The translations under genes were made by a program, and so were the position numbers. A DNA stretch of 64,000 nucleotides from Gemmatimonadales bacterium (GTDB lineage Bacteria > Gemmatimonadota > Gemmatimonadetes > Gemmatimonadales > GWC2-71-9): assembly GCA_965248285.1 (NCBI GenBank), contig CBDFJJ010000007.1, forward strand, positions 109,209 to 173,208. The letters run 5' to 3'. Of this stretch, positions 1 through 32,180 are shown one piece after another. Each line of letters begins with the position of its first letter. The stretch's first letter is position 1. The notes beneath the pieces are model-generated. The model was not told where the DNA came from, did not search any database, and was given only the letters and a program-made list of their open reading frames with translations.

Positions 1-73
1 GAGCACCAACCGGCGCAGCGCCCGGCGAGTGGAGCCTTCACCCTCCGGTCGCGGGCCGCCGGCCGGGCGATGC

Positions 74-988
74 TTAACCGACACGTACCTGGAACGTGAC
101 GGTGCCACTGTCACCACCTTGGATTGTGCCGATGCGGAAAACGACCCGGTTGCCGCCGACGTCGAAGACCCCCTCGTCGTCGCCGGCTGCGTCGGTTAGC
201 GACGTGCCGTTCCACCGCAAGGTGCCGGGAACGTACGACGTACCAATCGGAATGGGATCTTTGATCTCGAAATTGGTCGCCGTGTTCGTACCGCTGGCGC
301 TGTAGGTGATCGTGTACGTCAGGATGTCGCCGATCGTCGCACTGGTGCGGTCGACCAGCTTGTTCAGGCTCACCACGATCCCGACATCGCGAATCTCCAG
401 CACATCGAGCAGCCCGTCGGACTCGGATGCGTCGAACTCACTGGTGACGACGACGCTGATCGTATCGATCGTGCCCCGGACCGTTGCCAATCCGGGGACG
501 TCGATCACTACGAGGAGTTCGGCGGTGGCGCCCATCGCCAACATGATGGGACCGGTCACTCGGGGATCGCCCGCGTCCAGCGCGCCATCCGCATTCACGT
601 CGCGGTGCACCCGAACCGGCCATCCCATCCGCGACGTCGCGACGACCGTCGTGCTGTCGGTCCCATTGCCCATGTTGGTGAGCGTGTGATTGTATACCAC
701 GGTCGTCGCGGGGTCACTCACGGCGGAGCGCGGTGGCTCGAGGTCCGTGCCCGCCACCTGCGCGACGACCATGGCGAGCGTATCGGAATACGCCGTAAAA
801 ATCAGACCGTTGGGCGCCTCGTAGCTTGCCTCCGCAAACGAGTTGATTTGCGTCCCCGCCGGCGTCTGCGCCCACACAACAGGGGCGAAGAGAGCCAGCA
901 CGGGGAAGAAGCAGATGGCCCGGCCAATCTGGTGGCCGAATCCGGGCCTCTGTCCTGCCGTACCGTGCAACACCCCAAACAACCGCAT
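74..988 (-). CDS. Secreted DUF11 (conserved repeat domain) protein, P1
   Basis: ORF 74..1003 trimmed to ATG 988: AGGAGA SD lies 6 nt upstream, and 1003 is a TTG inside that SD. Signal peptide ..FFPVLALFAPVVWAQT. C-terminal module LNKLVDRTSATIGDILTYTITY..IKDPIPIGTSYVPGT..GTVTFQVRV fits the DUF11 pattern (family knowledge, no search run). Confidence 0.75.
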   Translation of the reverse strand: MRLFGVLHGTAGQRPGFGHQIGRAICFFPVLALFAPVVWAQTPAGTQINSFAEASYEAPNGLIFTAYSDTLAMVVAQVAGTDLEPPRSAVSDPATTVVYNHTLTNMGNGTDSTTVVATSRMGWPVRVHRDVNADGALDAGDPRVTGPIMLAMGATAELLVVIDVPGLATVRGTIDTISVVVTSEFDASESDGLLDVLEIRDVGIVVSLNKLVDRTSATIGDILTYTITYSASGTNTATNFEIKDPIPIGTSYVPGTLRWNGTSLTDAAGDDEGVFDVGGNRVVFRIGTIQGGDSGTVTFQVRVG

Positions 989-1041
989 TGTTGTTCTCCT
1001 CAACGTCGAATGATTCCGTACTCGATTCCGTGCCTCTTAAA

Positions 1042-1058
1042 GGCACGATGCGTGCCAC
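1042..1058 (-). promoter_or_regulatory. sigma-54 type -24/-12 promoter A (drives P1)
   Basis: Minus strand reads GTGGCACGCATCGTGCC. TGGCACG is at -24 and GTGC at -12, with exact GG-N10-GC spacing. It lies about 55 nt upstream of ATG 988. Confidence 0.6.
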
Positions 1059-1082
1059 AGAGGACCCCACGGTGTCACATGT

Positions 1083-1090
1083 AAGTTGTT
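1083..1090 (-). promoter_or_regulatory. Conserved AAGTYRTT box A between upstream motif and promoter
   Basis: Plus strand AAGTTGTT, 25 nt beyond the -24 hexamer. The same octamer occupies the equivalent position at promoters B, C and D. Confidence 0.4.
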
Positions 1091-1148
1091 GTTGGAATTA
1101 GACTTGTGGAGTTGTATCGCAAGGTGGATTTGTTGGCCGAGCCATCAC

Positions 1149-1176
1149 GTTACTGAATGGTAACTAACCACGTAAC
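1149..1176. promoter_or_regulatory. 28-bp tripartite upstream motif A (candidate enhancer/UAS)
   Basis: Plus strand GTTAC-TGAAT-GGTAAC-TAACCAC-GTAAC, 91 nt upstream of the -24 element of promoter A. Confidence 0.6.
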
Positions 1177-1377
1177 AGATACCGTTTGGTGTCGCTGCGG
1201 TAACCGCGGTGCTTTGTGGGGCGACAGCGTCTCTGGGGCTCAAGCCCTCCACGAGTCGTGAATCGGGTCGACTAATCGAATACTCGCGGTAGACCCCGGC
1301 TTGCGCCGGCGTCCCATCCGCTCATACGTCGGGCGAATGGGACGGCGGCGGTGACTCATGCTAACCCACACGGATCG

Positions 1378-2628
1378 CTAGTTAATGGTCACTTCGATCC
1401 AGAAGTAGACCGAGCTGCCTGCGGCCAGCGAGGGTAGCGTTGCATCTACGTGCTCGGGCGGACCGTTGAGCTTGGTTATCGTCCACCCGCTTGCGTCATC
1501 GCCGTGGGTCACATAGCTGACCTCGCTCGGGAGATCGTCGTCCACGTCAATGCTGCTGGCGGCTGCCGTACCCGATGCGTTGCTGACGGTGACCTTGTAC
1601 CAGATCGACTGACCCGGCAGCACGTCGCCGCTCACAGGGGTCGTCAATCCGGCGTCCGTAAAGGCCTCTTTGGTGATCGTCACGCTGGGACGGATCACGG
1701 TGAGATCCGCGAAGCCGTCGTCGAACGTCGCCGGAGTCGTCACCGACCTGCCGCGTAAGTAAACGGTGTCTTGGGTTCCGGCGGCTACGTTGAGCACCGA
1801 GTAGACGACGACGATCGTCGTCGATGCGCCCGCCGCCAGATTGATGCGAGTGCTGTCTCCCGCCACGGCGTTGACCGACACGATTGCGATGTCGCTCGCG
1901 TCCTCAAACGACGCCAGAAGGTCGAAATCCTCCGGGCCGTTACCGTTGTTCTGCACGGTAAACTGGAACGTGTAGTCCGTGCCGTTGCTCGGCAGGTGCT
2001 GCAGGTTCTGTCCACCGTCCGGCGTCACGGTCACGGCGAACGTTTCGCTGGCGTTGATATCGTAGTCGCCTGCATCCGACTCTCCGCCATCGCGAACGGA
2101 CGTAGCCGTCAACTGGTAGTTGGCGCTCAGGCCACCCTTGCTAGAGGGTACGTCGTATGTCACCGTGATGATCGTTGACGCGCCCGCCGTGAGCTGGTAG
2201 GTCGAAAGAGCGGTGTTCAGAAGTGCGAGGGTGGCGTAGTTCCCCGCATTAAAGTTGTAGTTGGTGACGGAGATAACCGTGGGATCACCCGTGATCGACT
2301 CGGCGACCTGCACCGTATCGACGCCGTTACCGACGTTCTGAACGGTCAACGCCATCGTGCCACCAGTGCTTGGGGACGCTGGACTCTGCGATCCGCCGTC
2401 TGGCGTGAATGACAGACCGGCCTGGAAGCCCACCGTGATCGCCACGGAGCCGTTCACCGGCGTGTACGTGTTGCCGTTGGCGTCAGTCCACGACACCGTC
2501 GCGGTGTTGGTGATGACGGTGCCTTCCGCCGTTTGGGCCCGTGCTGCCGTGACGGCGACGGCCATGATGATGCCGCTCAACGCCACGGTTCGAGCCAAAG
2601 CTTTCAAGTGCAACATGCGTTTCTCCAT
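1378..2628 (-). CDS. Secreted multi-module protein with C-terminal DUF11-like module, P2
   Basis: Signal peptide MLHLKALARTVALSGIIMAVAVTAARAQT. Internal modules: ..FTPDGG..LTVQNVGNG.. and ..TVTPDGGQNLQHLPSNGTDYTFQFTVQNNGNG... C-terminal module: ITKEAF..GQSIWYKVTVSNASG..DLPSEVSYV... Start is 2628 or ATG 2616 (GGAG SD). It lies only 22 nt downstream of P3, so the two are probably co-transcribed. Confidence 0.7.
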   Translation of the reverse strand: MEKRMLHLKALARTVALSGIIMAVAVTAARAQTAEGTVITNTATVSWTDANGNTYTPVNGSVAITVGFQAGLSFTPDGGSQSPASPSTGGTMALTVQNVGNGVDTVQVAESITGDPTVISVTNYNFNAGNYATLALLNTALSTYQLTAGASTIITVTYDVPSSKGGLSANYQLTATSVRDGGESDAGDYDINASETFAVTVTPDGGQNLQHLPSNGTDYTFQFTVQNNGNGPEDFDLLASFEDASDIAIVSVNAVAGDSTRINLAAGASTTIVVVYSVLNVAAGTQDTVYLRGRSVTTPATFDDGFADLTVIRPSVTITKEAFTDAGLTTPVSGDVLPGQSIWYKVTVSNASGTAAASSIDVDDDLPSEVSYVTHGDDASGWTITKLNGPPEHVDATLPSLAAGSSVYFWIEVTIN

Positions 2629-2650
2629 TCCTTAAGAAAGGCGCGCTCTG

Positions 2651-3211
2651 TTAACGCCTCGACGCCCTGGGCTCTTTGCCAGGCTCTTGTGATGTGGCGT
2701 TCGCCACCAGCTTCGCTTCGAATTCTGCGGTGACCTGCACGCCGGGCTGCACCCAATCCTGGACGAGCCAGCGTATGTGGGTGTACCGCTCCGGCGGCGC
2801 CGGCCGCCTGATCGAACGGCCGTCAACCAGCACATCGACCAGCGGCTGTGTCGAATAGGTCAAACCACCGTCGATTGAGTACTCGATGACGACGTCGTCG
2901 CGGTCGGACAGAGCCGAGCCATCCACATAGGTCAGACCGGAGGGGATCGGGTCCTTCAACTCGATTCCGCGGACGGGTGCGTCGATGATGTTCGTGAACA
3001 CCAGCCGGTACAGCACCACGTCGCCGGCGAACAATGCTTGGGCGTCACCACCGCGCTCGGCGTGTCCGCGATGCATGGCGTCGCCCGCCATGAGATTCTC
3101 AGCCGTGATCACCAGCGCCTTGCGACCCTCGGCGTCCTGTGCGGCCGCCGGCGTGCTCCAAGACGCAGCGACCATAGCCGCCAATGCCAATACCTCTCGC
3201 CAGTGCTTCAT
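2651..3211 (-). CDS. Secreted DUF11 protein, P3
   Basis: ORF 2651..3301 trimmed to ATG 3211 (AGGAGA SD 7 nt upstream); the 3301 start would overlap promoter B. Signal peptide MKHWREVLALAAMVAASWSTPAAAQD. DUF11-like core: VVLYRLVFTNIIDAPVRGIELKDPIPSGLTYVDGS..IEYSIDGG. Confidence 0.7.
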   Translation of the reverse strand: MKHWREVLALAAMVAASWSTPAAAQDAEGRKALVITAENLMAGDAMHRGHAERGGDAQALFAGDVVLYRLVFTNIIDAPVRGIELKDPIPSGLTYVDGSALSDRDDVVIEYSIDGGLTYSTQPLVDVLVDGRSIRRPAPPERYTHIRWLVQDWVQPGVQVTAEFEAKLVANATSQEPGKEPRASRR

Positions 3212-3296
3212 CGCTCGATCTCCTGTTCTCTGGGTCCGGCTGGCGACGGTATTCGCCGCGTCGACAGCCTTTTGCTGTTCATGCGGGGGTGTAAAG

Positions 3297-3312
3297 AGCA
3301 TGCGGCATGCCG
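3297..3312 (-). promoter_or_regulatory. sigma-54 type -24/-12 promoter B (drives P3-P2)
   Basis: Minus strand reads CGGCATGCCGCATGCT. GG and GC are at the exact N10 spacing and the -12 region is ATGCT. It lies about 85 nt upstream of ATG 3211. Confidence 0.45.
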
Positions 3313-3341
3313 CGGGGTCACCGCGCGGTACGAGATCACAT

Positions 3342-3349
3342 AAGTTGTT
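3342..3349 (-). promoter_or_regulatory. Conserved AAGTYRTT box B
   Basis: Plus strand AAGTTGTT, 29 nt beyond the -24 hexamer of promoter B. Confidence 0.4.
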
Positions 3350-3409
3350 TCTTGACAGGTATTTACGGTGTCAGAACCGACCGGTTGTCACGAATTCGGC
3401 TGCTGCTGC

Positions 3410-3437
3410 GTTACCGAGAAGTAACAATATCGGTAAC
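3410..3437. promoter_or_regulatory. 28-bp tripartite upstream motif B
   Basis: Plus strand GTTAC-CGAGA-AGTAAC-AATATCG-GTAAC, 97 nt upstream of the -24 element of promoter B. Confidence 0.6.
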
Positions 3438-3612
3438 GGAATCCGTAGCGGAGGAGGGGTTCGGGGCGGCCGGACGTGGAGGCATCAACGAGGTCCGTGG
3501 CGCGGTGTTATGTCACTATTCACCACACTCGCTGCGAGCAATGCTCAGCTTGCGGGGCCTCCAGGATAGGGTGATCCGTCCGGTGCCGTTCGGGCCTGGA
3601 CCCCGAGCGCCG

Positions 3613-5178
3613 TCAGGATATCCTGCACACGAACTCCACTGTGCCGGTGTTGTCGGGTGCCGAGAAACCCAGGACATTCAGTAGGGTCCAGCGGATTCGG
3701 TCGACGCAGCCGTCGTAGTTGGCCGGGGCGCCACACCCGGTGGAGATCGGCACGTAGGTCCAGCTGCTACCGCCATCGTTGGAGTATTCGACCGTTACGC
3801 CGATTCCGACCGGCAAGTTGTTGACGACGCTCCCAACCTTGAACTCCACCTCAGCCGGCAACGAGTCCACGATCACCACACCGGCAGCGTCCTGGCTGCC
3901 GTCGTTGGTGACGGTGACCGTGTAGGTGAGGTCGGTGCCCGGGAGTTGCGTTCCGTTGGGATTGACCGACTTGGAGGTGGTCATACTCGGCTTAACCAGC
4001 TCCACGAACGCCGAGCCCGAGTCGGTGGAGTTGCTGTTGCTCACCGCCCGGCCCATGAGATACAGCGAGTCCAGGGTTCCGAGGGCGGCGTCCGAGACCT
4101 GGAACCACACGAAGGCGCTGTCACTTGAACTGGCGGGTATGTCGGCGATTCGCGCGCTGTCCGGGTCGGCTCCCCGGGTCACGTTGGGTCCGGTGACCGA
4201 ATCCGTCGTGAGGATGGTTGCGGAGTAGCCGAACAGATCGAAGGACTGGACGGCACCCGACGAGTTCGTGACCGTGAACTTGTACGACGTCGCCGTTCCG
4301 TTGCTGGGAAGAAGCCCCAACGTGTCCGCTCCATCGGGCGTGACGGTAAAGGCCACGGGCTGCACGGGTGCGATGGCAATCGTAACCGTTCTCGACTGCT
4401 CCGTATCCGTCAGCGAGAACGTCGACGTGCCACTCGAGCCCGCCGTCGCCTGGACCACGTAGCCGGCGCCGCCGGACACCGTGCCGCTGGCCGGGTCGCT
4501 CTCGTCCATGGTGATAGCCGTGTGTCCCGAGAGCCCCGGACTGTCTATTGTCACGTCGTCCTCGTCGAAGGCCCCCATGCGCACGATGAGCGTGTTGTCC
4601 ACCGTCGTCGTGACGGCGGGGCTGGTCGGCGTGGAGTTATTTCCGTCTTCGGCGGCGGCGACCACATGGATCGGTGCGGCGGCATCGTGGCCGGTAAAAC
4701 GCATCATCCAGGCATACACCTGCTGGGTGCCCGACCACGTGAACTGATGGGTCGCTGACTCCGACGCGCCGGCGAGCTTCCACCAGACGGCCAGCGTCAC
4801 TTCGTTGTTGTAGGCGCCCACGTCGATGAGCGTCCATCCCTCACCCCCAGGCGGGCTGATCGACGCAGCCGTGTTCCCGTCGGTCGCCACCGCGACGACC
4901 AGGAGGTCCCCATTGCTCGTGCCACACGGGATGGGAACGTCGATGGATAGCACGTTGCTGCTCGCCTTCGCCTCCGCGCCGCCCTCGTAGCGCACCGGGG
5001 CACCGCCCGGCGTCCCGAAGCACCCCTGGGCGAGAGCCGGTGGCGCGAAGATCCCGCCCGCCACGAGGAGAGCGACGCCCAAGAACAGCGTTCTCGGGTT
5101 GAGGAGAGAGAGCGCCAGGCCACGGCTCCCGGCGGTCCTAGGGACCGACGAGCTCAACCCGCTCCCCGAAATCAGCAT
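3613..5178 (-). CDS. Large secreted protein with C-terminal DUF11 module, P4
   Basis: ORF 3613..5280 begins with TTG; ATG 5178 is the more likely start (GGAGAGGAAAG upstream). Hydrophobic signal ..LFLGVALLVAGGIFAPPALAQG. Central module FTVTPDGADTLGLLPSNGTATSYKFTVTNSSG is shared with P2. C-terminal module: GTDLTYTVTVTNDGSQDAAGVVIVDSLPAEVEF..VEYSNDGGSSW. Confidence 0.7.
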   Translation of the reverse strand: MLISGSGLSSSVPRTAGSRGLALSLLNPRTLFLGVALLVAGGIFAPPALAQGCFGTPGGAPVRYEGGAEAKASSNVLSIDVPIPCGTSNGDLLVVAVATDGNTAASISPPGGEGWTLIDVGAYNNEVTLAVWWKLAGASESATHQFTWSGTQQVYAWMMRFTGHDAAAPIHVVAAAEDGNNSTPTSPAVTTTVDNTLIVRMGAFDEDDVTIDSPGLSGHTAITMDESDPASGTVSGGAGYVVQATAGSSGTSTFSLTDTEQSRTVTIAIAPVQPVAFTVTPDGADTLGLLPSNGTATSYKFTVTNSSGAVQSFDLFGYSATILTTDSVTGPNVTRGADPDSARIADIPASSSDSAFVWFQVSDAALGTLDSLYLMGRAVSNSNSTDSGSAFVELVKPSMTTSKSVNPNGTQLPGTDLTYTVTVTNDGSQDAAGVVIVDSLPAEVEFKVGSVVNNLPVGIGVTVEYSNDGGSSWTYVPISTGCGAPANYDGCVDRIRWTLLNVLGFSAPDNTGTVEFVCRIS

Positions 5179-5276
5179 TGACAGCTTTCCTCTCCGAAGG
5201 CGAGGACCACAACGGACCGCGCAACCAGGTGTGCCCCCGGACTCCGTCCAACAATCAGATCGCTGGCTCTCATGGC

Positions 5277-5486
5277 TCAACGAACACGCCGCGCGTCGGG
5301 TTCAAGGTCGTTCTCCCTGCACTTGTCCTGTGGCGCCACACGACCGCGGGGGGGAAGCCGATCGTTCAAATGCGGCTCCCGCCACGCGAACGGCTGGCCG
5401 CATACGGGACAGACAACCAGACTGCCCATCACGCCGCCGAACGGGTATTGGCGACTGCGACAGCATTTTGGACACGTGAGTCTCAG
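5277..5486 (-). CDS. Candidate 69-aa zinc-ribbon protein, absent from the ORF track (non-canonical start)
   Basis: My own translation of the minus strand gives (L/M)RLTCPKCCRSRQYPFGGVMGSLVVCPVCGQPFAWREPHLNDRLPPRGRVAPQDKCRENDLEPDARRVR*, with two CxxC pairs 18 residues apart. GGAGG SD at 5493-5497 lies 6 nt before CTG 5486, and no ATG/GTG/TTG precedes the first CxxC. Its stop TGA (5277-5279) overlaps TTG 5280 of the P4 ORF (GTTGA). It sits in the otherwise empty ~340-nt leader downstream of promoter C. Confidence 0.4.
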   Translation of the reverse strand: MRLTCPKCCRSRQYPFGGVMGSLVVCPVCGQPFAWREPHLNDRLPPRGRVAPQDKCRENDLEPDARRVR

Positions 5487-5526
5487 CCTTCACCTCCCGA
5501 TGCGAGAATCTTGCGCCACATCAGCA

Positions 5527-5542
5527 AGCATGGCTCATGCCA
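5527..5542 (-). promoter_or_regulatory. sigma-54 type -24/-12 promoter C (drives zinc-ribbon ORF and P4)
   Basis: Minus strand reads TGGCATGAGCCATGCT: TGGCAT at -24, ATGC at -12, exact GG-N10-GC spacing. Confidence 0.5.
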
Positions 5543-5570
5543 GCCCAGACGCAGCTTCTAAAAAAGCGTG

Positions 5571-5578
5571 AAGTTGTT
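5571..5578 (-). promoter_or_regulatory. Conserved AAGTYRTT box C
   Basis: Plus strand AAGTTGTT, 28 nt beyond the -24 hexamer of promoter C. Confidence 0.4.
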
Positions 5579-5637
5579 GCTGTAAAATGACTTACACGTC
5601 TAGACGGGGAGGGGGTTGCGGCTAAGCATACGGTGCT

Positions 5638-5665
5638 GTTACGAAATGGTAACGCACCATGTAAC
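5638..5665. promoter_or_regulatory. 28-bp tripartite upstream motif C
   Basis: Plus strand GTTAC-GAAAT-GGTAAC-GCACCAT-GTAAC, 95 nt upstream of the -24 element of promoter C. Confidence 0.6.
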
Positions 5666-5728
5666 GGAGTGCGGGGTTAGAGGCGAGGTCTTGCGGGGTT
5701 CAAGGCCGCCTCCATCACCAAGGCGGTC

Positions 5729-7201
5729 TCACAGCAGACCGTGCTTCTTGCGCTTCTCCCACAAATTCTTGCGCGAGATACCAAGGATCTCAGCAGCTTT
5801 CTCCACAGCCCCGTCGCACGCATCCATAGTGCGGCCGATATACTTCTTTTCGGCCCCGGCCAGCGTCAGGCCCTTAGGAATCTCGAAAGCCGCGTCGGAC
5901 TCTGTGTTCGCCGTGGTAACGTCGAGACGTCCGAACTCCGGCAGGTCGGTGGTCTGGAGCACGGCGCCCGCGGCGAAGATCATGGCCCATTCCATGACGT
6001 TTCTGAGTTCCCGCACGTTGCCGGGCCAGTTCCACTCCTGCAGCACCTGGGCGGCCTCCGGGCTGATCGACCGTACCTCCTTGCGGAACTCCCGGTTGAA
6101 CACCCCCAGGAAATGGTCGGCCAGGAGCGCGATGTCCTCCTTGACGTCCCGGAGAGATGGTAGGCAATGGGTGGCGACGCTGATCCGATAGTAGAGGTCG
6201 TTGCGAAACCGCCCGGCGCGGACCGCCTCATCCAAGTCGCGGTTCGTGGCAGTGATCAGCCGGAGGGCAACCTCGATCTCCTCCGTCCCACCGATCCGGC
6301 GAAACTGGCGGGACTCGAAGAAGTTGAGGAGCTTGGCCTGAAGCTCGGGGGAGAGATCTCCGATCTCGTCGAGAAACAGGGTCCCGCCGTCTGCCACTTC
6401 AACCAGGCCCCGCTTTGACTCGCGGGCGTCCGTGAACGCTCCCTTCTGGTGGCCGAACAGCTCCGCCTCGATAAGCTGGGGGGGCAGCGCCGAGCAGTTG
6501 ATTTCGACGAACCGCCCCTCCGAATCTGGGCTCGAGTAGTGGATCGCGCGAGCCACCAGGTTCTTCCCCGTTCCGCTCTCGCCAAGCAGCAGCACCGTCG
6601 GCCGTGGGATGTCGGCGATCTGGCGGACGAACTGGCGGACCTCCTCAATTCTCGGGTGCTCACCGAGAATCGCACGAACGGAGAATTCCTCCCGCCGCAC
6701 CTGCCGGAGGGTCGTAGCTTCCTCACGCAGCGGTCGCTCGTCGAGAGCGCGCTTGAGTAGTGCGTTGAACTCGTCGATGTTAACTGGCTTGGTCAGGTAG
6801 TCGGTTGCGCCGGCTTTCAACGCCTCAATTGCTGTCGCCATTTCCGCGTGGGCAGTGACGACGAAAATTGGCAGATGCGGGTCGCGCCCACGAAGCCGCC
6901 GCGTCACGTCGATGCCGCTGAGACCGGGCATCACGAGGTCGGTGACGATCGCATCGGGCAAGTCTTCCGCGCACCGCGCGAAGAGTTTTTCGGGATCGTC
7001 GAAGACTTCCCCGCGCAAGCGAGCCGCCGGATCGAGGTTGGCGGCTAGTAGCTTTGCAAAATCGAGGTCGTCATCCAGGATATAGATTCTCGGTATCACA
7101 AGTCGAATAATTGCGTCGAAGAGGTTGAGCCACAAGCCGCGCACTCCCGCCTCGAGACAGGGCGCGAATGGAGCCACGTTCATCGTCCTCGTGATCGACA
7201 C
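5729..7201 (-). CDS. sigma-54-dependent response regulator (NtrC-type enhancer-binding protein: REC + AAA+ + Fis-type HTH)
   Basis: REC domain: [21 protein letters not shown]+ domain: Walker [16 protein letters not shown], sigma-54 contact loop KGAFTDA (a GAFTGA variant), Walker [12 protein letters not shown], and [14 protein letters not shown]-terminal HTH: [21 protein letters not shown]. Confidence 0.9.
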
Positions 7202-7322
7202 TACTGGCGTCGGTGGCGAAGGTTACGCGGTCGTCTAACTGAGGCTAAGCCCAGACGTGGTTGCGATCGCAAACACCTCCCCGACGACGCCGACGCTATC
7301 GCCGGACCGAATTGGTCCGCGA

Positions 7323-7928
7323 TCAAGGGGTCATATTGGATCGCAAGTTTGGGACCAATAGGAGAGGCATATCTGTCATAGGAACGATCGTGTCCGCCGG
7401 CTGGAACGGCACCGGGATCGGTGCCGGTGAAGGCACTTTGCTGTTGGCGTTTCCGATCGCCGAACCGGCTCCGGTTGAGACCAACACGAACGCCGCGAAA
7501 GCGCCCGCTCGAATCATCCGTCGCTTGAAGTTCCGCGAAAGACGAGCCTCGAGGGCGCGGGTTTTCGTTCGCAGGACCGCTTTCTCCGCCCCCCTTTCGA
7601 TGGCCACCGCCAGGTGATCCAGGGCAACCGGCTTTGCTAGAAAGTTCTCCGCGCCAACGCGCATCGCTCGTACGGCGTCCTCGATTTCAGCCTGCCCGGT
7701 GAGCATGATCACCACCGCACGCTTCTCGCGCAGTCGATCCAACACCTCCATCCCTGACATGCCAGGCATCTTGAGGTCCAGCACCGTGACCTGAGGAGAA
7801 ACACGTTTCCAGGTTGCAATGCCTTCGGAACCCGACGCCGCCGTGTATACCGCGTGCCCAAGCTGCCGGAGGTGTGTGCTCAGGAGGTTCAGAAGATCGA
7901 CATCGTCGTCAATGATGAGAATACGCAT
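7323..7928 (-). CDS. Receiver (REC) domain protein with a C-terminal hydrophobic helix and no output domain
   Basis: ORF 7323..7961 trimmed to ATG 7928 (GGAG SD 8 nt upstream). REC: MRILIIDDDVDLL..VLDLKMPGMSG..LAKP. This is followed by ..RRMIRAGAFAAFVLVSTGAGSAIG.. (predicted TM) and a Pro-rich tail. Confidence 0.75.
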   Translation of the reverse strand: MRILIIDDDVDLLNLLSTHLRQLGHAVYTAASGSEGIATWKRVSPQVTVLDLKMPGMSGMEVLDRLREKRAVVIMLTGQAEIEDAVRAMRVGAENFLAKPVALDHLAVAIERGAEKAVLRTKTRALEARLSRNFKRRMIRAGAFAAFVLVSTGAGSAIGNANSKVPSPAPIPVPFQPADTIVPMTDMPLLLVPNLRSNMTP

Positions 7929-7966
7929 GGGTTTCGCTCCAAGTGGCAGCTTCCACCTCACTCAAC

Positions 7967-7982
7967 AGCAGGAGACGTGCCA
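7967..7982 (-). promoter_or_regulatory. sigma-54 type -24/-12 promoter D (drives the REC-TM / EBP operon)
   Basis: Minus strand reads TGGCACGTCTCCTGCT: TGGCACG at -24, CTGC at -12, exact spacing. It lies about 40 nt upstream of ATG 7928. Confidence 0.6.
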
Positions 7983-8010
7983 CTCGGGGACGGGCGCTGG
8001 CCGACCCTGT

Positions 8011-8018
8011 AAGTCATT
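8011..8018 (-). promoter_or_regulatory. Conserved AAGTYRTT box D (variant AAGTCATT)
   Basis: 28 nt beyond the -24 hexamer of promoter D. Two further AAGTTG copies follow at 8023-8034. Confidence 0.3.
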
Positions 8019-8079
8019 ATTCAAGTTGAAGTTGCGGTGTTTCAGCGAGGTGGCTGCGCCTGGTGACCGGGAAACTATG

Positions 8080-8107
8080 GTTACTAGACGGGAACCACCA
8101 GCGTCAC
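8080..8107. promoter_or_regulatory. 28-bp tripartite upstream motif D1 (degenerate)
   Basis: Plus strand GTTAC-TAGAC-GGGAAC-CACCAGC-GTCAC, 97 nt from the -24 element of promoter D. Confidence 0.5.
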
Positions 8108-8108
8108 T

Positions 8109-8136
8109 ATTACAGTATGGTAACAGTCCATGCTAC
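8109..8136. promoter_or_regulatory. 28-bp tripartite upstream motif D2
   Basis: Plus strand ATTAC-AGTAT-GGTAAC-AGTCCAT-GCTAC. It is tandem to D1 (29-bp period) and lies 114 nt from the -24 element of promoter E. Confidence 0.55.
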
Positions 8137-8250
8137 CCGCCCTGGAGGTGGTCTAGCCGTCCTGAAGGACCGCAAACCGGAACTGGCCGGTCTCTTCAAC
8201 CGGGACAGGACTTGCAGGTGTCAAGATCGTTGGTCGAGGAGGTAGACTTT

Positions 8251-8266
8251 TGGTATCACGGATGCA
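8251..8266 (+). promoter_or_regulatory. Candidate sigma-54 type promoter E (drives the REC-Hpt-HK operon)
   Basis: Plus strand TGGTATCACGGATGCA: GG-N10-GC spacing is exact and the -12 ATGC matches promoters B and C, but the -24 hexamer TGGTAT is weaker. It lies about 70 nt upstream of ATG 8336. Confidence 0.35.
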
Positions 8267-8335
8267 ATACTTGCCGATCGAAGGCATCGTTACAGGGCCG
8301 CTGCTCCTTCGACCACCTCGGAGCGCCAAGGGCGA

Positions 8336-8719
8336 ATGTCAACACCCTTCCGGATAGTCATAATCGACGATGACGCTGATCTTCGGGAGCTGATCAAAGT
8401 GACGTTGGAGTTTACGGCTGGTTGGGAGGTTGTAACGGCTGCCGACGGCCCCGAGGGGATTGCCGCCGTACGGCGGTCGACGCCCGACGCCGTCGTGGTA
8501 GACCTTATGATGCCCGGCATGGACGGCTATGAGGTGTGCCGTCAGCTTCGTCAGGATCCTGAAACGGCAGAGATTCACCTTGTCCTGCTGACCGCCCGCA
8601 GGCAGCTTGACCAGGCGCAATTCGAGTCCGCGGGTTCCGTGGGGGTCATCTTCAAACCATTCGAACTGGACGACCTCGCACCCCGCATTCTTGAACTTTG
8701 TGGATCCCGGGATGGTTGA
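8336..8719 (+). CDS. Single-domain response regulator (CheY-like receiver)
   Basis: FRIVIIDDDADLRELI..AVVVDLMMPGMDGYEV..VLLTAR..IFKPF: the canonical REC acidic pocket, phospho-Asp and Lys. Confidence 0.9.
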   Translation: MSTPFRIVIIDDDADLRELIKVTLEFTAGWEVVTAADGPEGIAAVRRSTPDAVVVDLMMPGMDGYEVCRQLRQDPETAEIHLVLLTARRQLDQAQFESAGSVGVIFKPFELDDLAPRILELCGSRDG

Positions 8720-9086
8720 CGATCAGGACCGGGGCGCTGCCGGTCACGATGCCCAGCTGGCCGAGATTCACCGCCAGTTTTCCCAGGGGTTGCCCGCTCG
8801 ACTAGAAATCCTGCGATCCGCCTTAGTCGAACTCACAGAAGGCTACCAACAGGCCATGGCCGAAAGTTTCTATCGCGCGGCGCACTCACTCAAGGGAACT
8901 GCGGCGTCCTTCGGTACCCCCGATCTGGCAGCGCACGCTGCACTCCTCGCTGATCTGGGAGACGGGTGGGTGCGGCGCCACGCTGCCCCGCACGACGAAA
9001 TCTCGTCTGCGTCCGCCGAGCTTCAGCGACTCGAAGCGACGATGGAGGCATACACAGGAAGAGTGGAGGGCGGCGGAGCAGAATGA
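8712..9086 (+). CDS. Hpt (histidine phosphotransfer) domain protein
   Basis: ORF 8607..9086 trimmed to ATG 8712, which overlaps the upstream stop. Hpt signature: FYRAAHSLKGTAASFG. Confidence 0.8.
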   Translation: MVDDQDRGAAGHDAQLAEIHRQFSQGLPARLEILRSALVELTEGYQQAMAESFYRAAHSLKGTAASFGTPDLAAHAALLADLGDGWVRRHAAPHDEISSASAELQRLEATMEAYTGRVEGGGAE

Positions 9087-10789
9087 CGCCGCAACGCGAC
9101 TCGCGGACCCTCTCAGACACCGATCGGCTCGAAGTTGTCGGTGAGCTCGCTGCACTGATCAACACAAAGTTCGATCTGAACGAGATTTTCGAGGCGGCCA
9201 TCCTGAAGCTGCGGCGCGTGATGGAATTCCGCCGTGCCAGTGTGCTGCTCCTCTCCGAAGACCGACACCACTATTACCTGCACACTTTATACGACGCGGA
9301 CAGCGGCGGGTTTGTCCAGTTGTTACAGGAGTTCAGCCTCGACGAGGGTCGCCCCGGAAAGGTGATCCGCACCGGGCAAGCGATGCTGGTGAACGAGTTC
9401 GAGGGCACTGAGGGAATCCGCAGCAAGGGTGAGCAACAAGTGTCAGCGCTAATTGTCCCACTTCGAGTGGAAGACGATGTCATAGGAACGCTCAACTTTG
9501 GAGTTGGCAGCACTAAGATTTACCGGGAGGAGGACCTGGAACTCGCGATCCTGCTGGCGCGACCGATCGAAACGTCACTGCACTACTCCAGGCTTTTCGC
9601 TACGATCCAAAGCCAGCGGGAACAACTGGCGATTGAAAATGCGCAAGTTCAGTCCGAGCGAACCCGCCTAGAAGCCCTCATCGAAGCAAGCGACGCTGCA
9701 ATTCTTATGGTAAGCGACGACATTGTCGCTCACGCAAACGGCACCATGGCTCGCCTGCTCGGCGTTCCCCTCGAAACCCTCGTGGGGGCGCCGATGGAAC
9801 ACATCAATCAGGCGGTTGCCCAGTCGCTGGCTGACCCCGAGGCGCTTGCCGTACAGACCGCCGCGCTCAATCGGGCAAGCCCGCCGCTGCGGGACCGAGT
9901 TGAATTCGTCTTTCCACGTCGGGCCATTTGCCAGCGCACGGTGGCTACGGTGCCCGGGGTGGGGGGCGACGTGCTGGGCTTTTTGCTGCTTTACCGCGAC
10001 GTCACGCGCGAAGCCGACGCGGAAGCCGCTAAGGACGAGTTCCTTGCCACAGTCAGCCACGAACTTCGCACCCCGCTCACCTCGATAAAGACTTCCCTCG
10101 GCCTGCTCGGGAAAGGCGCCGCAGGGACAGTGACCCAGCAGATGCAGAAGTTTCTCGATATCGCACTCCGCAATCTCCAGCGACTCATTCGACTGGTGGA
10201 CGACCTGCTCGACCTCTCCAGGGTCGCAAACGGGCGTTCCAAACCCACCCTCGTGCCGGTGTCCATTAAGGAAGCTACCGACCGCGCGGTGGAGGCTGTC
10301 CGCGGCTCTATTCAGGAGCGGGACGTCAAGCTGGAGCGCGACCGCCCCGCAAAGTCGATGCTCGTTAAGGGCGATGCCGATGGCTTGGTGCAGGTCGTCG
10401 TCAATCTCCTGTCCAACGCCGTCAAGTTCTCGCCCCGTGGGGGGCGCGTCACACTGGGCTGGCGGAAAGACGGCGACTTCGCCGTCCTCGAGATCTCGGA
10501 CGAAGGACCTGGATTGCCGGCCGACATGCTCGAAACGATCTTCGACAAGTTCCTGCAACTCGACGGGTCGTCCACTCGCCGTCACGAAGGAGTCGGGTTG
10601 GGACTTCACATCAGTCAGATCATAGTCGAAGATTTCGGGGGCAGGATCTGGGCGGAGAGCGAGGACGGGCAGGGATCTCGGTTCTTCGTCCGACTGGCGC
10701 TGGCCGACGCAGCTCCCAAACCCAATGAGATCGAAGGTCAGATCAAAACCGTCCAGGCCGAGGAGGGTCATCGTGGAGAAGAATCCTGA
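9083..10789 (+). CDS. GAF/PAS sensor histidine kinase
   Basis: ORF 8966..10789 trimmed to ATG 9083 (ATGA overlap with the Hpt stop). H-box FLATVSHELRTPLTSI, N-box NLLSNAVKFSP, G1 DEGPGL, G2 GVGLGLHIS. N-terminal GAF-like and PAS-like regions. No C-terminal receiver. Confidence 0.9.
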   Translation: MTPQRDSRTLSDTDRLEVVGELAALINTKFDLNEIFEAAILKLRRVMEFRRASVLLLSEDRHHYYLHTLYDADSGGFVQLLQEFSLDEGRPGKVIRTGQAMLVNEFEGTEGIRSKGEQQVSALIVPLRVEDDVIGTLNFGVGSTKIYREEDLELAILLARPIETSLHYSRLFATIQSQREQLAIENAQVQSERTRLEALIEASDAAILMVSDDIVAHANGTMARLLGVPLETLVGAPMEHINQAVAQSLADPEALAVQTAALNRASPPLRDRVEFVFPRRAICQRTVATVPGVGGDVLGFLLLYRDVTREADAEAAKDEFLATVSHELRTPLTSIKTSLGLLGKGAAGTVTQQMQKFLDIALRNLQRLIRLVDDLLDLSRVANGRSKPTLVPVSIKEATDRAVEAVRGSIQERDVKLERDRPAKSMLVKGDADGLVQVVVNLLSNAVKFSPRGGRVTLGWRKDGDFAVLEISDEGPGLPADMLETIFDKFLQLDGSSTRRHEGVGLGLHISQIIVEDFGGRIWAESEDGQGSRFFVRLALADAAPKPNEIEGQIKTVQAEEGHRGEES

Positions 10790-10790
10790 C

Positions 10791-12485
10791 GTGCCGCATC
10801 TTCTGGTTGTGAACCACCGAGTTTCCCACTTTGTAATTGTCTTGCTCTTTGCCATGACATCCAACCTCACCGCTCAAGAGACGCGTCCGTCGACCCTGGC
10901 CGGTCGCTCGACCGTGTATGCCCCACGCGGGGCGATCGCCACCAGCCAACCCCTCGCCACCGCAGCCGGTCTCGCCGTCCTGCAGCGTGGCGGCAACGCG
11001 TTCGACGCCGCCGTGACCGCGGCGGCCGTGCTCAATGTCGTGGAGCCCCATATGACGGGAATGGGTGGTGATCTCTTTGCGCTGTTCTGGTCTCAGAGCG
11101 AGCAACGACTGGTGGGCTTGGACGCAAGCGGCCACGCGGGCGCGTTGATGACGCGTGATGAGTTGCTGGCGCGCGGCCGAGAGAGGGTTCCCTCGAACGG
11201 CGCAGAAGCAATCACTGTTCCGGGCGCACTGTCGGGTTGGGCGGCGCTCTTGGAAAAGTACGGCACGATCAGCCTCGCGGAGGCACTCGCTCCCGCCATC
11301 CGAATAGCTGACGAAGGTTTCCCAGTCACACCGATCATCGCGGCGCAGTGGGGTGGTGCCGACCGCAGGCTCGCACGGGACCCGGGTGCACGCGCAACGT
11401 ATCTGATAGACGGAGAACGCGCGCCCCATGCGGGCGAGTGGTTCCGTAACCCCGACATCGCGGCGTCGTTCCAAAGCATCGCCGCCAAAGGACCCGGCGT
11501 TTTTTACGGAGGCGAGTTGGGGCGCAAGGTGGTGGACGGCGTCCGCGAGCTGGGTGGATTCCTCACCATCGAAGATCTCGCCAGTCACGAGCCGAGCTGG
11601 GTAGAGCCCCTCTCGGTCGCTTTCAAGGGATACCGGGTGTGGGAGCTTCCACCGAGTGGGCAAGGGATCGCCGCACTAGAAATGCTTCGGATCTTGGAGC
11701 CCTACGACCTGAAAGCGATGGGCCACAACTCTGCAGCCTACCTTCATCATCTCATCGAATCCAAGAAACTGGCGTTCGCGGACCTGGCGCGTTTCGTGGG
11801 CGACCGCGACCACATGATCGTTTCGGCCGAAGACCTCCTGTCTGATGAGTTCGTCGAGCAACGGCGCGCGCTGCTGAACCCAACCCGTGCCGCCGACCGA
11901 GTAGACCCAGGTAAGGCCGTAACGTCCAGCGAGACGATTTATCTCACCGCGTCCGATCAGCACGGCAACATGGTATCGTTCATCAACAGTATTTACTCGT
12001 CATTCGGCTCCGGCGTCGTCGTGCCCGGCACCGGCTTTGCCCTGCAGAACCGCGGCGCCGGGTTCACGATAGAACCCGATCACCCCAACACGGTGGCGCC
12101 CGGCAAGCACCCTTTCCACACAATTATTCCAGCTTTCGTCACAAAGGATCAAGGTGGAGAGCAGATTCCGTGGCTGAGTTTCGGTGTGATGGGTGGTTCC
12201 ATGCAACCGCAGGGACACGTCCAGGTGTTCTTGAGTCTGATCCTCTTCGATATGGACCTTCAGGATGCGATCGACGCTCCGCGGTTTCGGCACATGGGCG
12301 GCCGCCGCGTGGCTATCGAGTCACCTGTCGGGGAGGAAGTGCGTCGTGCACTCGAATCGATGGGACACGAGTTGATAGACGAAAGCGGAGCGTCCTTCGG
12401 TGGTGGGCAGGCTATCATGCGCTTGCTTCGAGGTTGGGCCGCCGCATCCGATCCAAGAAAGGACGGGATGGCGGCAGGACACTGA
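10791..12485 (+). CDS. ggt: Gamma-glutamyltranspeptidase
   Basis: GAIATSQPLATAAGLAVLQRGGNAFDAAV..HMTGMGGD and the nucleophile region TIYLTASDQHGNMVSFINSIYSSFGSG. ORF track start 10725 overlaps the HK gene. In-frame GTG 10791 (GGAGAAG SD) gives a signal peptide ..FVIVLLFAMTSNLTAQE. Confidence 0.9.
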   Translation: MPHLLVVNHRVSHFVIVLLFAMTSNLTAQETRPSTLAGRSTVYAPRGAIATSQPLATAAGLAVLQRGGNAFDAAVTAAAVLNVVEPHMTGMGGDLFALFWSQSEQRLVGLDASGHAGALMTRDELLARGRERVPSNGAEAITVPGALSGWAALLEKYGTISLAEALAPAIRIADEGFPVTPIIAAQWGGADRRLARDPGARATYLIDGERAPHAGEWFRNPDIAASFQSIAAKGPGVFYGGELGRKVVDGVRELGGFLTIEDLASHEPSWVEPLSVAFKGYRVWELPPSGQGIAALEMLRILEPYDLKAMGHNSAAYLHHLIESKKLAFADLARFVGDRDHMIVSAEDLLSDEFVEQRRALLNPTRAADRVDPGKAVTSSETIYLTASDQHGNMVSFINSIYSSFGSGVVVPGTGFALQNRGAGFTIEPDHPNTVAPGKHPFHTIIPAFVTKDQGGEQIPWLSFGVMGGSMQPQGHVQVFLSLILFDMDLQDAIDAPRFRHMGGRRVAIESPVGEEVRRALESMGHELIDESGASFGGGQAIMRLLRGWAAASDPRKDGMAAGH

Positions 12486-12573: not shown

Positions 12574-13973
12574 GAGTTATTTTCGAAAGTTGTGGATTGG
12601 AGGAATGAGAAAGGCGGCGTATCCTTTCGTGTAGTCAGTTGAAACGTACACGAGATCCGGTTGTGACGACCGGAGAAAGGACACGCCACCGATGTTGAGG
12701 ATAATAGAGAATGCGTCTGAGAGCAAAGGGAACGGACTGTTCGCAGACCTGGACGAGCTTGCCAGAGAGGGAGCTCGGCGGATGCTGGTGAGTGCGTTGG
12801 ACGCGGAAGTGACCGAGTATGTCGAGCGATATCGGATTGAGCGAGACGGAGAGGGCCGCGCCCTGGTGGTGCGCAATGGCAAAGCCCGTCCCCGCAAGGT
12901 GACGCTGGGTGCTGGTACGGTCACGGTGACCGCGCCACGGGTGCATGACCGTCGTATGCGGGCGCAGTTCACGAGCAAGATTTTGCCTCCCTATATGCGG
13001 CGGTCGCCGAAGGTGGCGGAGGTCTTGCCGGTGTTGTATCTGCGCGGTCTGTCGACGGGAGATTTTCGCGAGGCGTTGCCGATCTTGTTGGGTGAGGACG
13101 CATCAGGCTTGTCCCCGACGACGATCACGCGATTGACGGCGGCGTGGGAGGGGGAATACCAGGCGTTTCGCCAGCGTGATCTGCGTGATCGGGAGTATGT
13201 GTACGTCTGGGTCGACGGGATCCACTTCAACATTCGCCTCGAGGCCGACCGGCTGTGTACGCTGGTGATGCTGGGCGCCCGGGCGGATGGGACGAAAGAG
13301 CTGATCGCGGTGGAGGACGGCTATCGGGAGAGCACGGAGAGCTGGTTGGCGGTGTTGCGCGATCTGAAGCGTCGGGGGATGCGGGCCCCGGTGCTGGCGA
13401 TTGGGGATGGCGCGTTGGGGTTCTGGGCAGCGGTGCGGGAGGTGTGGCCGGCGACGCGGCAGCAGCGCGACTGGGTGCACCGGATGGCCAACGTGTTGGA
13501 CAAGCTTCCGAAACGTTTGCAGCCGGCGGCGAAGCGGGTGTTGCGCGAGATGATGTGTGCGGAGGCCGAGGCGCTGGTCGAGCGTTTCGCCACCGCGTAT
13601 GCGGCCAAGTATCCCAAGGCGGTCGCCTCGCTCACGCGGGACCAGGAGCACCTGTACAGCCATTTTGATTTTCCGGCCGAGCATTGGAAACATATCCGTT
13701 CGACGAACGTGATCGAGTCTGCCTTCGCGACGGTCCGGTTACGACAGCGCGTGACCAAGGGAGCGGGCTCGCGGAGCAAAGGGCTGACGATGGCGTTCAA
13801 GCTGTTGGAGATGGCGCAGCAACGTTGGCGGAAACTCAACGCTCCAGAACTTCTCCCCCTGGTGTTGGCAGGAGAACAATTCAAAGATGGTATGCAGGAA
13901 ACTGACAAAGAGAACACGGATCGGAAGGTCGCCGCTTGATCACTCACCGATCCACAACATTTGACAATACCTC
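12574..13973 (+). mobile_element. IS256-family insertion sequence, copy 1 (1400 bp)
   Basis: Imperfect 27-bp terminal inverted repeats: GAGTTATTTTCGAAAGTTGTGGATTGG and the reverse complement of CCGATCCACAACATTTGACAATACCTC. Perfect 9-bp target duplication AAGACCAGC at 12565-12573 and 13974-13982. Confidence 0.9.
12692..13939 (+). CDS. IS256-family (Mutator-type) transposase, 415 aa
   Basis: WVDGIHFNIRLE..ALGFWAAVREVWPATRQQRDWVHRMANVLDKLP..STNVIESAF fits the Mutator/IS256 family pattern. It is 4 aa shorter than copies 2 and 3. Confidence 0.9.
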   Translation: MLRIIENASESKGNGLFADLDELAREGARRMLVSALDAEVTEYVERYRIERDGEGRALVVRNGKARPRKVTLGAGTVTVTAPRVHDRRMRAQFTSKILPPYMRRSPKVAEVLPVLYLRGLSTGDFREALPILLGEDASGLSPTTITRLTAAWEGEYQAFRQRDLRDREYVYVWVDGIHFNIRLEADRLCTLVMLGARADGTKELIAVEDGYRESTESWLAVLRDLKRRGMRAPVLAIGDGALGFWAAVREVWPATRQQRDWVHRMANVLDKLPKRLQPAAKRVLREMMCAEAEALVERFATAYAAKYPKAVASLTRDQEHLYSHFDFPAEHWKHIRSTNVIESAFATVRLRQRVTKGAGSRSKGLTMAFKLLEMAQQRWRKLNAPELLPLVLAGEQFKDGMQETDKENTDRKVAA

Positions 13974-27050: not shown

Positions 27051-27212
27051 GGCGCGCGCGGTCACGATGTCGAGGACTGCATCCGCACCGCACCCCAGGG
27101 TCGGAGGGCGCACACACAGGGTCAGACGGTGCGCCGGGGCTCGTGCTTCGGAGGCCGGTGTGGATCGCCCGGAGGAAGATGTGGAGGACGCCGGCTTGGA
27201 GGAAATCGAGCG

Positions 27213-29375: not shown

Positions 29376-29404
29376 CACCGCCACGTCACAAAGGAGGCGT
29401 CCCC

Positions 29405-31192: not shown

Positions 31193-31258
31193 CCGAGGGA
31201 CGGCCACTCGCTCGCTTCCCGTTCCTCAGCGAATATTGGTTTGAGGGGGGAATTCGTC

Positions 31259-31360: not shown

Positions 31361-31365
31361 TTGGC
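31324..31365 (+). repeat. ~42-bp direct repeat, copy 1
   Basis: GGGCCCGCcCCGTCACCAAGGAC-TAAGGTcgacGTAGTTGGC. Its partner is at 40504-40546. Confidence 0.7.
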
Positions 31366-31378
31366 CCAAAACGCGCGG

Positions 31379-32167: not shown

Positions 32168-32180
32168 GCCGAATGCATCC

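Follow-up and report, generated by a model that had tools for sequence, protein, structure and literature searches.

Donor-strand complementation is the classical way in which chaperone-usher and type V pili are built, and SpyTag/SpyCatcher is an engineered split of the CnaB2 domain of a Gram-positive adhesin. The present work concerns a gene block of a Gemmatimonadales bacterium (GenBank assembly GCA_965248285.1, contig CBDFJJ010000007.1), found at positions 74-10789 of the 64,000-nucleotide stretch that was analysed (the window). The block encodes four secreted proteins, P1 to P4, with truncated C-terminal domains of the DUF11 family, and beside them a phosphorelay with a sigma-54 enhancer-binding protein (EBP). 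The reading favoured here, with moderate confidence, is a modular surface fibre that is assembled by domain completion in trans and that has its own switch. Gemmatimonadota are abundant soil bacteria. To our knowledge, almost none of their surface structures has been characterised and transcriptional regulation has been little studied in the phylum.

PF01345 (DUF11) was renamed CLIPPER in 2025 and its structure has been solved (PDB 9IFR; PMC12617251), so its treatment as a domain of unknown nature in the initial annotation of this DNA is outdated. CLIPPER is a CnaA-like stalk domain of fibrillar adhesins and carries an intramolecular Lys-Asn isopeptide bond, the formation of which is Asp-catalysed (PMC12617251). 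The proteins of the present locus match the same family above cut-off, and the strand-1 Lys and the 'D.lP' Asp of the truncated domains of P1, P2 and P4 align with those of 9IFR. The giant protein encoded after P1 in related loci combines CLIPPER, SdrD_B and OmpA domains, and the Acinetobacter adhesin of 9IFR has CLIPPER repeats and a C-terminal OmpA-like anchor. However, in the known adhesins the domains are complete, stand in tandem in one long polypeptide and have intramolecular isopeptides, whereas here the domain appears to be divided among separately exported proteins, and any Lys-Asn bond would join two chains. The words 'split', 'strand complementation' and 'Gemmatimonad' do not occur in the text of PMC12617251, and 'intermolecular' is never used there about CLIPPER. 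A literature search turned up no report of CLIPPER or CnaA-like domains that are split in nature, and none of this Gemmatimonadota system.

In archaeal threads, complementation with a subsequent isopeptide between subunits has been reported (Saci_0406; PMC9715654), and the same was proposed, with mutational support, as 'exchange and lock' for Clostridium perfringens BsaA of the TasA family (bioRxiv 10.1101/2024.11.04.621531). As would be the case here, an N-terminal strand enters the neighbour and a spontaneous inter-subunit isopeptide follows without a sortase. The folds are unrelated, however (TasA/camelysin-like and thread head domains), the products are homopolymers, and the hosts are monoderm or archaeal. 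In archaeal threads the bond uses the N-terminal amine, whereas here it would be formed by a Lys-Asn-Asp triad in a CnaA-like domain of a diderm. SpyTag/SpyCatcher is alike in that a Cna-type domain is cut, with Lys and a catalytic acid set against a residue of the partner, and there reconstitution gives a covalent bond. In the present locus, by contrast, the split is natural, affects a CnaA-like domain at several joints and is known from sequence alone.

The locus was compared with 80 Gemmatimonadota loci from a scan of species-representative genomes and 3 distinct loci from protein look-ups, 83 in total. Their open reading frames (ORFs) were classified with family hidden Markov models (HMMs) built for this analysis. 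Judged by the homologues of P2, the window itself belongs to Gemmatimonadota. The order of the structural genes is near universal: tip protein, P3, P2, (P1), giant protein. A protein of 1450-2200 amino acids (aa) always comes after P1/P2 wherever the contig reaches, and by synteny the ORF at the left edge of the window is the probable gene of this giant base protein. All ten genes of the initial annotation were recovered with their domains; in the profile searches the cut-offs were 24.6 bits for Pfam DUF11 and 24 for NCBIfam TIGR01451 ('DUF11 type repeat'). The signal peptides of P1-P4 were assigned by eye only, at AxA|Q sites. The structural genes, with putative roles, are:

1-41, reverse strand: probable 5' end of the giant-protein gene; a GTG at 41-39 opens the ORF VKAPLAGRCAGWC..., which runs off the window
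74-1003, reverse strand: P1, putative adaptor subunit (DUF11, 48.4 bits); donor strands aa 46-85 (nt 749-868), truncated CLIPPER acceptor aa 204-309 (nt 77-394)
1378-2628, reverse strand: P2, putative shaft subunit with three Ig-like domains (DUF11, 28.9 bits); donor strands aa 32-68 (nt 2425-2535), truncated CLIPPER acceptor aa 308-416 (nt 1381-1707)
2651-3211 (best start 3211), reverse strand: P3, a single truncated CLIPPER acceptor (TIGR01451, 38.2 bits; no match in the Pfam search)
3613-5178 (best start 5178), reverse strand: P4, putative tip subunit (DUF11, 33.9 bits); N-terminal beta domain of about 210 aa at aa 62-271 (nt 4366-4995), then an Ig-like domain, then a C-terminal truncated CLIPPER acceptor aa 390-521 (nt 3616-4011); donor strands absent

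The DUF11 matches end at profile position 84 of 114 in P1 and P2 and at position 51 in P4, and the proteins end there as well. In P1 the match covers profile positions 3-84, up to the last residue. None of P1, P2 and P4 has a complete domain (about 114 profile positions, 9 strands) in one chain, and contiguous full domains were found only in fused orthologues. Inspection of the end sequences placed the last acceptor strand at the very C-terminus of P1 ('...TVTFQVRVG'), P2 ('...FWIRVQIN') and the tip protein ('...VEFVARIK'). The missing strands have the signature '..GT.ItNtA.v.y.d.nGn.y....s..vtV' (also written 'TP[EA]GT.I.N.A.v.Y...N...Y....v.vtV'), and this signature forms the mature N-terminus of P2 (QTAEGTVITNTATVSWTDANGNTYTPVNGSVAITVGF), of P1 (QTPAGTQINSFAEASYEAPNGLIF...) and, in split loci, of the giant protein (VVSNTAAATYETIAGTDSVGSN...). 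When the N-segment of P2 was appended to the C-domain of P2 or P1, the DUF11 match reached position 102 and gained 8-10 bits, against only 1.6 bits with a shuffled P2 N-segment. An HMM of the P2-derived chimera was too family-specific for other acceptors and was replaced by a mixed donor HMM and end-sequence inspection. The donor HMM was positive in 80/83 P2, 19/20 P1 and 56/69 giant proteins, but in 0/79 P3 proteins; the 3 positives among 67 tip proteins were all misclassified P2, and among other ORFs there was 1 in 1869. The giant protein therefore contributes a donor only, P1 and P2 a donor plus an acceptor, and P3 and the tip an acceptor only, an imbalance within chains which argues against mere folding in cis. 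A PDB sequence search with the chimera of P2 acceptor and donor returned nothing useful. Division of CLIPPER between consecutive proteins, which the initial annotation had missed and which is the unusual feature of the cluster, is well supported by these comparisons.

Natural fusions point in the same direction. P1 is contiguous with the giant protein in about 50 loci and is a separate gene in about 12, this lineage included. The split falls exactly between 'FQVRVG' and 'VVSNTAAATYE...', with a new signal peptide behind it. In one fused protein (locus L005), residues 48-308 align to P1 residues 45-306, and residues 317-723 to residues 49-428 of the giant protein. When 25 fused domains were aligned with P1 of the window, P1 stopped where the others run on into 'v.N.A.a.Y...G.DsV.SN.V.T'. 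In these domains the Lys and Asp are invariant and the Asn is present in at least 90%. P2-P1 fusions were found in locus L012 and in an independent cluster (P0059), with the P1 donor following 'FFWIRV' and a 9-residue linker. The P1 acceptor and the giant donor, and likewise the P2 acceptor and the P1 donor, are thus shown to be halves of one domain. Since each split half has its own signal peptide, completion would have to occur in trans after export.

The candidate isopeptide residues of P2 are K320, D364 and N41, present in 83/83, 82/83 and 77/83 orthologues, respectively. The Asn, which would come from another chain than Lys and Asp, is present at the donor position in 76/79 P2 donors and in 11/11 split-giant donors. 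Lys is kept in 60-90% of tip acceptors, and in P3 the strand-1 Lys position is Ala in at least 90% of 80 orthologues. The alternative that survives best is trans completion of a purely non-covalent kind, that is, classical donor-strand complementation in which Lys, Asp and Asn serve folding and no inter-subunit isopeptide forms. Many CLIPPER domains are indeed without isopeptides (PMC12617251), P3 has no Lys, and the Asn is missing in 46% of P1-type donors. This alternative is nevertheless doubtful, because K320 is invariant in 83 stand-alone P2 proteins and was replaced (by Q) in the one lineage with a peptide-linked P2-P1 fusion, because 96% of P2 donors and all split-giant donors carry the Asn, and because the residues fall on the positions of the triad proven in 9IFR. 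Judged from these residues, a Lys-Asn bond between chains is plausible where P1 meets the giant protein, where the tip meets P2 and, should such joints exist, between copies of P2. At the P2-P1 joint the bond is not universal, and P3 is excluded from it. Links between P2 subunits find weak support in the fact that K320 never varies although the P1 donor does. Tentatively, the system could be a natural counterpart of SpyTag/SpyCatcher, in which a fission-split CnaA-like CLIPPER domain both assembles and covalently locks a hetero-oligomeric or polymeric diderm fibre (giant, P1, P2(n), lectin tip) without sortase, usher or chaperone.

Structure prediction is compatible with a rod-like shaft. The AlphaFold2 (AF2) model of mature P2, built with 119 sequences, is a confident three-domain Ig/beta rod with a mean pLDDT (predicted local distance difference test) of 94.8, a pTM (predicted template modelling score) of 0.77 and a pLDDT of about 90 in the donor strands. 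Foldseek searches with it returned AgI/II C-terminal domains, PrgB Ig domains, cadherins, integrin legs and SafDAA. In the AF2 model of P4 the N-domain has a pLDDT of at least 95 and is followed by an Ig domain and by the acceptor domain, for which the chain contains no donor and where the pLDDT falls to 57-83, as expected of an unfinished fold. Foldseek with the whole P4 model gave only generic Ig-rod matches and no fold for the N-domain. This all-beta domain belongs to no Pfam family but is 67% identical to tandem C-terminal modules of LamG/prepilin-type (PulG-annotated) proteins of about 800 aa from Planctomycetota metagenomes. Such identity is unusually high between phyla, and the P4 N-domain is therefore perhaps a mobile adhesin module. 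The N-domains of tip proteins differ among loci (LamG/DUF2341, CBM96 or the P4-type module), which fits a ligand-binding tip. Having a lectin-like or variable N-domain and no donor, P4 would therefore be the tip. P3, with an acceptor only and no cross-linking Lys, is a candidate cap or periplasmic holder of donor strands. An exhaustive search for P3 relatives returned dozens of small single-domain proteins mixed with generic giant CLIPPER proteins and was taxonomically uninformative.

Completion in cis would mean that the N-terminal strands of P1 and P2 fold onto the C-terminal domain of their own chain as a circularly permuted CLIPPER. The products would be independent monomeric surface or periplasmic proteins, the P3 and P4 domains would be degenerate, and there would be no fibre. 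The P2 monomer, modelled with confidence including its N-terminal strands, looks as self-completion would, and the lack of encoded assembly machinery also fits. This explanation is unlikely, however. A donor is present in the giant protein although each of its own domains is complete, and P3 and the tip, which have acceptors, always lack a donor. When P2 is fused to P1, the P1 segment next in the chain fills the P2 acceptor, and still the N-terminal donor of P2 is fully conserved. The point at which P1 and the giant protein are split also lies inside one domain, followed by the new signal peptide.

The initial annotation described the cluster as self-contained and without an anchor. Neither description held, since in relatives the block continues into the giant protein, which carries an OmpA domain and, at its C-terminus, a barrel-like region; in the window its gene is cut at position 1. 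The giant protein of CP070716.1 consists of a signal peptide, a donor segment of about 30 aa, CLIPPER, CLIPPER_2-like, SdrD_B and OmpA (residues 490-563) domains, about 450 beta-rich aa and a C-terminal region of about 800 aa. The last of these has an alternating pattern and terminal 'GWFVT..VR.TE' strands like a large outer-membrane barrel. A profile of the last 830 aa found no sequence relative in the PDB, and Pfam gave no match, so the term barrel describes a sequence pattern. More than 60 loci keep the region (residues ~1000-1818 of L001 12117-17573), whose mean column identity over 20 sequences is 53%, and it may be an undescribed large outer-membrane domain.

For the fibre part of the favoured reading, we infer assembly in trans, covalent bonds and the export route from sequence logic and the natural fusions. 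Once exported by Sec, one protein would complete the C-terminal CLIPPER of the next with its N-terminal strands. The giant donor would complete P1, the P1 donor would complete P2, and the P2 donor would complete another P2, the P4 tip or P3. The fibre would thus run from a giant base through a P1 adaptor and a P2 shaft to a lectin-like P4 tip or a P3 cap, and the giant protein would anchor the base in the envelope via its OmpA domain and barrel-like C-terminus. With Lys and the catalytic Asp in the acceptor and Asn in the donor, completion could lock the subunits covalently without a sortase.

Such a fibre would share several traits with chaperone-usher and Bacteroidota type V pili: an incomplete Ig-like fold completed by the terminal strand of a neighbour, the order tip adhesin, shaft, adaptor and anchor, and a tip without a donor. 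It would differ in its CnaA-like CLIPPER fold, in the donation of two strands (about 35 aa) and not one, in a base formed by a giant protein that has an OmpA domain and ends in a barrel-like region, and in the lack of a PapD-like chaperone, usher, lipoprotein sorting signal or Rgp-type cleavage signal. Dedicated chaperone/usher genes or type V lipoprotein/protease genes were found neither in the window block nor in the 83 related loci, and a chaperone-usher pilus was rejected for want of usher and chaperone genes. Sortase-assembled Gram-positive pili likewise have a tip, shaft and base of Ig-like isopeptide domains. Foldseek ties P2 and P4 to AgI/II, PrgB and a Corynebacterium membrane-anchored (pilin-like) protein, and a profile of the P1-giant junction domains (including the P1 C-terminal domain) matches the Spb1 pilin. 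In contrast to such pili, neither LPXTG nor a pilin-motif lysine context is found here and the host is diderm. A sortase pilus was rejected because the proteins end on the last acceptor strand without an LPXTG-type sorting signal and the cluster has no sortase gene. An S-layer was rejected as well, since no SLH-type domains were found.

Several points weigh against the proposed system. The block encodes neither an export nor an assembly machine. Among 6969 proteins no tip-P2 or P2-P2 fusion was found, so those joints and the polymerisation of P2 are only deduced. Only 30/56 P1-type donors have the Asn, and therefore not every joint can be covalent. The AF2 monomer of P2 does not separate completion in cis from completion in trans, and a thinner alignment may be the reason why the pLDDT of the P4 acceptor is lower. 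In the giant protein the fibre end and the barrel-like region are separated by the OmpA domain, so the topology, and even the surface location, are a matter of deduction. On the side of regulation, rpoN is not in the examined part of the window, and no search for it was made in this genome.

The switch part of the model is well supported. The regulatory genes, promoter-like sites and copies of an upstream element (UAS), the candidate binding element of the EBP, are:

5729-7201, reverse strand: NtrC-type EBP with REC, Sigma54_activat (PF00158, 214 bits), AAA_lid_14 and HTH_8; its true start probably lies downstream of 7201
7323-7928, reverse strand: REC-only response regulator with a C-terminal hydrophobic (membrane) segment AGAFAAFVLVSTGAGSAIG, here called REC-TM
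8336-8719, forward strand: single-domain REC response regulator, putative phosphorelay intermediate
8711-9086, forward strand: Hpt phosphotransfer protein, start codon read from the sequence
9083-10789, forward strand: soluble GAF-PAS-HisKA-HATPase histidine kinase, in ATGA overlap with the Hpt stop
1043-1057, reverse strand: -24/-12 promoter-like site for P1, TGGCACGCATCGTGC
3298-3311, reverse strand: -24/-12 promoter-like site for the P3-P2 operon, GGCATGCCGCATGC
5528-5542, reverse strand: -24/-12 promoter-like site for the Zn-ribbon-P4 unit, TGGCATGAGCCATGC
7968-7982, reverse strand: -24/-12 promoter-like site for the REC-TM/EBP operon, TGGCACGTCTCCTGC
8251-8265, forward strand: -24/-12 promoter-like site for the REC-Hpt-kinase operon, TGGTATCACGGATGC
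1149-1176: UAS 1, perfect GTTAC-N6-GTAAC-N7-GTAAC, GTTACTGAATGGTAACTAACCACGTAAC, 93 nt from the promoter-like site
3410-3437: UAS 2, perfect, GTTACCGAGAAGTAACAATATCGGTAAC, 99 nt from the promoter-like site
5638-5665: UAS 3, perfect, GTTACGAAATGGTAACGCACCATGTAAC, 97 nt from the promoter-like site
8080-8107 and 8109-8136: two tandem degenerate UAS copies (2 and 3 mismatches) between the divergent regulatory operons

The initial annotation had noted a GG-N10-GC site at each of five units and a shared 28-bp motif upstream, and both were recovered. The five sites of the pattern GG[CT]A-N7-TGC (-24/-12, sigma-54 type) are all intergenic and correctly oriented. By itself this pattern is not enriched in the window (6 observed, 3.1 expected). 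The motif is present in five copies, three of them perfect, and the spacing to the promoter-like site is 93-99 nt at four sites and 116 nt at the fifth. At up to 2 mismatches the UAS has 4 matches in 64 kb, against 0.00 expected from 100 shuffles. It consists of a 16-bp palindrome and a third half-site one helical turn away, a layout typical of NtrC-family operators.

Among loci with an adjacent EBP, 24/26 (window included) possess the UAS (up to 2 mismatches) together with a -24/-12 site, the UAS lying 52-101 nt upstream. In these loci the pair stands before the tip gene and the P3 operon and at times before the giant gene; sites before P1 and both regulatory operons are peculiar to this genome or to close relatives of it. 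Where the upstream DNA is present and the EBP is lacking, no locus contains the UAS (1.23 Mb scanned). A further 14 loci have a UAS on a contig or flank that stops short of the place of the EBP. The co-occurrence of UAS and EBP is strict across 24 loci spanning 36-61% P2 identity. Since UAS and -24/-12 pairs follow the EBP across loci, this phylogenetic footprinting strongly supports the link between EBP, operator and sigma-54, and the five units very likely form one EBP-dependent regulon, as the initial annotation had supposed. The linkage of EBP and DUF11 genes, also expected from it in related genomes, was seen in 26 loci (window included), but in about half of the assessable loci the fibre genes occur without this EBP or UAS. 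In loci L003, L005, L016 and L054-L085, a P3-P2-giant block is present without this EBP and operator, several of them with a different REC-domain protein upstream. The same fibre has therefore apparently been wired to different regulators by lineage.

The EBP contains the motifs GESGTGK and LFLDEI. In 26/26 orthologues its L1 loop, which contacts sigma-54, is GAFTDA and not GAFTGA, a variant listed as tolerated and compatible with activation (PMC4641369). By its AAA+ domain, its L1 loop and its -24/-12 targets with an upstream element, the protein belongs to the sigma-54 bacterial enhancer-binding proteins. It reached none of the named NCBIfam equivalogs compared (AtoC, NtrC, the PEP-CTERM-box regulator, LuxO, ZraR), scoring 413 vs a cut-off of 714 for AtoC, 366 vs 559 for NtrC and 353 vs 503 for PEP_resp_reg. 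Wherever an EBP of this family sits upstream, divergent REC-Hpt-kinase genes are found beside it.

From domain content we infer a phosphate path in which the soluble GAF-PAS kinase would pass phosphate via REC and Hpt to the REC-AAA+-HTH EBP. The EBP would bind GTTAC-N6-GTAAC-N7-GTAAC about 75-115 nt upstream of the -24/-12 promoters and would open the sigma-54 holoenzyme at P4 (tip), the P3-P2 operon and P1. In this genome it would act at both regulatory operons too, giving positive feedback. The scheme resembles a phosphorelay of the LuxU-LuxO type in its REC-AAA+-HTH_8 architecture, its palindromic element about 100 nt from a -24/-12 site and its separate Hpt, but here the kinase is a soluble GAF-PAS protein, and a stand-alone REC and a membrane-anchored REC are added. 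It is highly improbable that the pattern of promoters and motifs is coincidental or another regulator's, with the DUF11 genes transcribed from sigma-70 promoters and the two-component genes unrelated: the unenriched -24/-12 pattern, the EBP-less half of the fibre loci and the GAFTDA loop would agree with this, but the UAS, with zero matches expected by chance, stands at a constant distance from the -24/-12 sites, in constant orientation to them, and goes strictly with the EBP, and no sigma-70-like promoter stood out in a scan for sigma-70 promoters and terminators, which was uninformative.

Two smaller genes accompany the switch. The REC-TM gene is apparently co-transcribed with that of the EBP and has no counterpart beside the EBP in related loci; its product may be a lineage-specific phosphate sink or localisation factor. 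The other lies before P4:

5277-5486, reverse strand: small cytoplasmic zinc-ribbon protein (CPKC...CPVC..FAWRE), probable CTG start

This small ORF, listed in the initial annotation, is real and conserved, but the listed GTG start is probably wrong, as the first CxxC lies upstream of it. At the homologous start position there is only a CTG and no standard start codon, and the gene most likely starts at CTG 5486. The protein is kept in at least 25 loci, usually encoded by the first gene of the P3 operon (for example L001 9226-9318), with the consensus MVLRCPxC...VVCPxC..FAWRE, a basic tail and no signal peptide. A profile search gave only weak Zn-ribbon domain matches.

If the proposal is true, split CLIPPER represents a new way of building fibres in diderms, by reconstitution of a domain in trans and with swappable lectin-like tips. 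Repeated fission and fusion at the same point within a domain would show how multi-subunit fibres can evolve from one long adhesin. With at least three donor/acceptor specificities in one operon, such loci are a possible natural source of orthogonal self-ligating tag/catcher pairs. The operator GTTAC-N6-GTAAC-N7-GTAAC also defines a testable sigma-54 regulon.

Outside the block, a 586-aa ORF (10725-12485, forward strand), gamma-glutamyltranspeptidase-like by eye, begins inside or just after the 3' end of the kinase gene and is not kept beside the cluster in other loci. The block borders a stretch rich in insertion sequences (about 12.7-27 kb). Three IS256/Mutator-family transposase genes lie just beyond the cluster (12692-13939, forward; 19477-20736, reverse; 22933-24192, reverse), the last two of which are probably identical copies, as their Pfam scores and lengths are identical. 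There are two 366-aa ORFs at 25734-26834 (forward) and 58734-59834 (reverse), the first being an IS5-like (DUF772 + DDE_Tnp_1) transposase. The sequence GGCATCGCGGATGC recurs at 21010, 26088 and 59467, which suggests three copies of one insertion sequence. The regions 27129-41071 and 52712-58545 encode two S9/DPP-IV peptidases, a DUF885 protein, a multihaem cytochrome (32181-34217), two PD40-amidohydrolase giants and an FG-GAP repeat protein, which is ordinary envelope and proteolysis content unrelated to the cluster.

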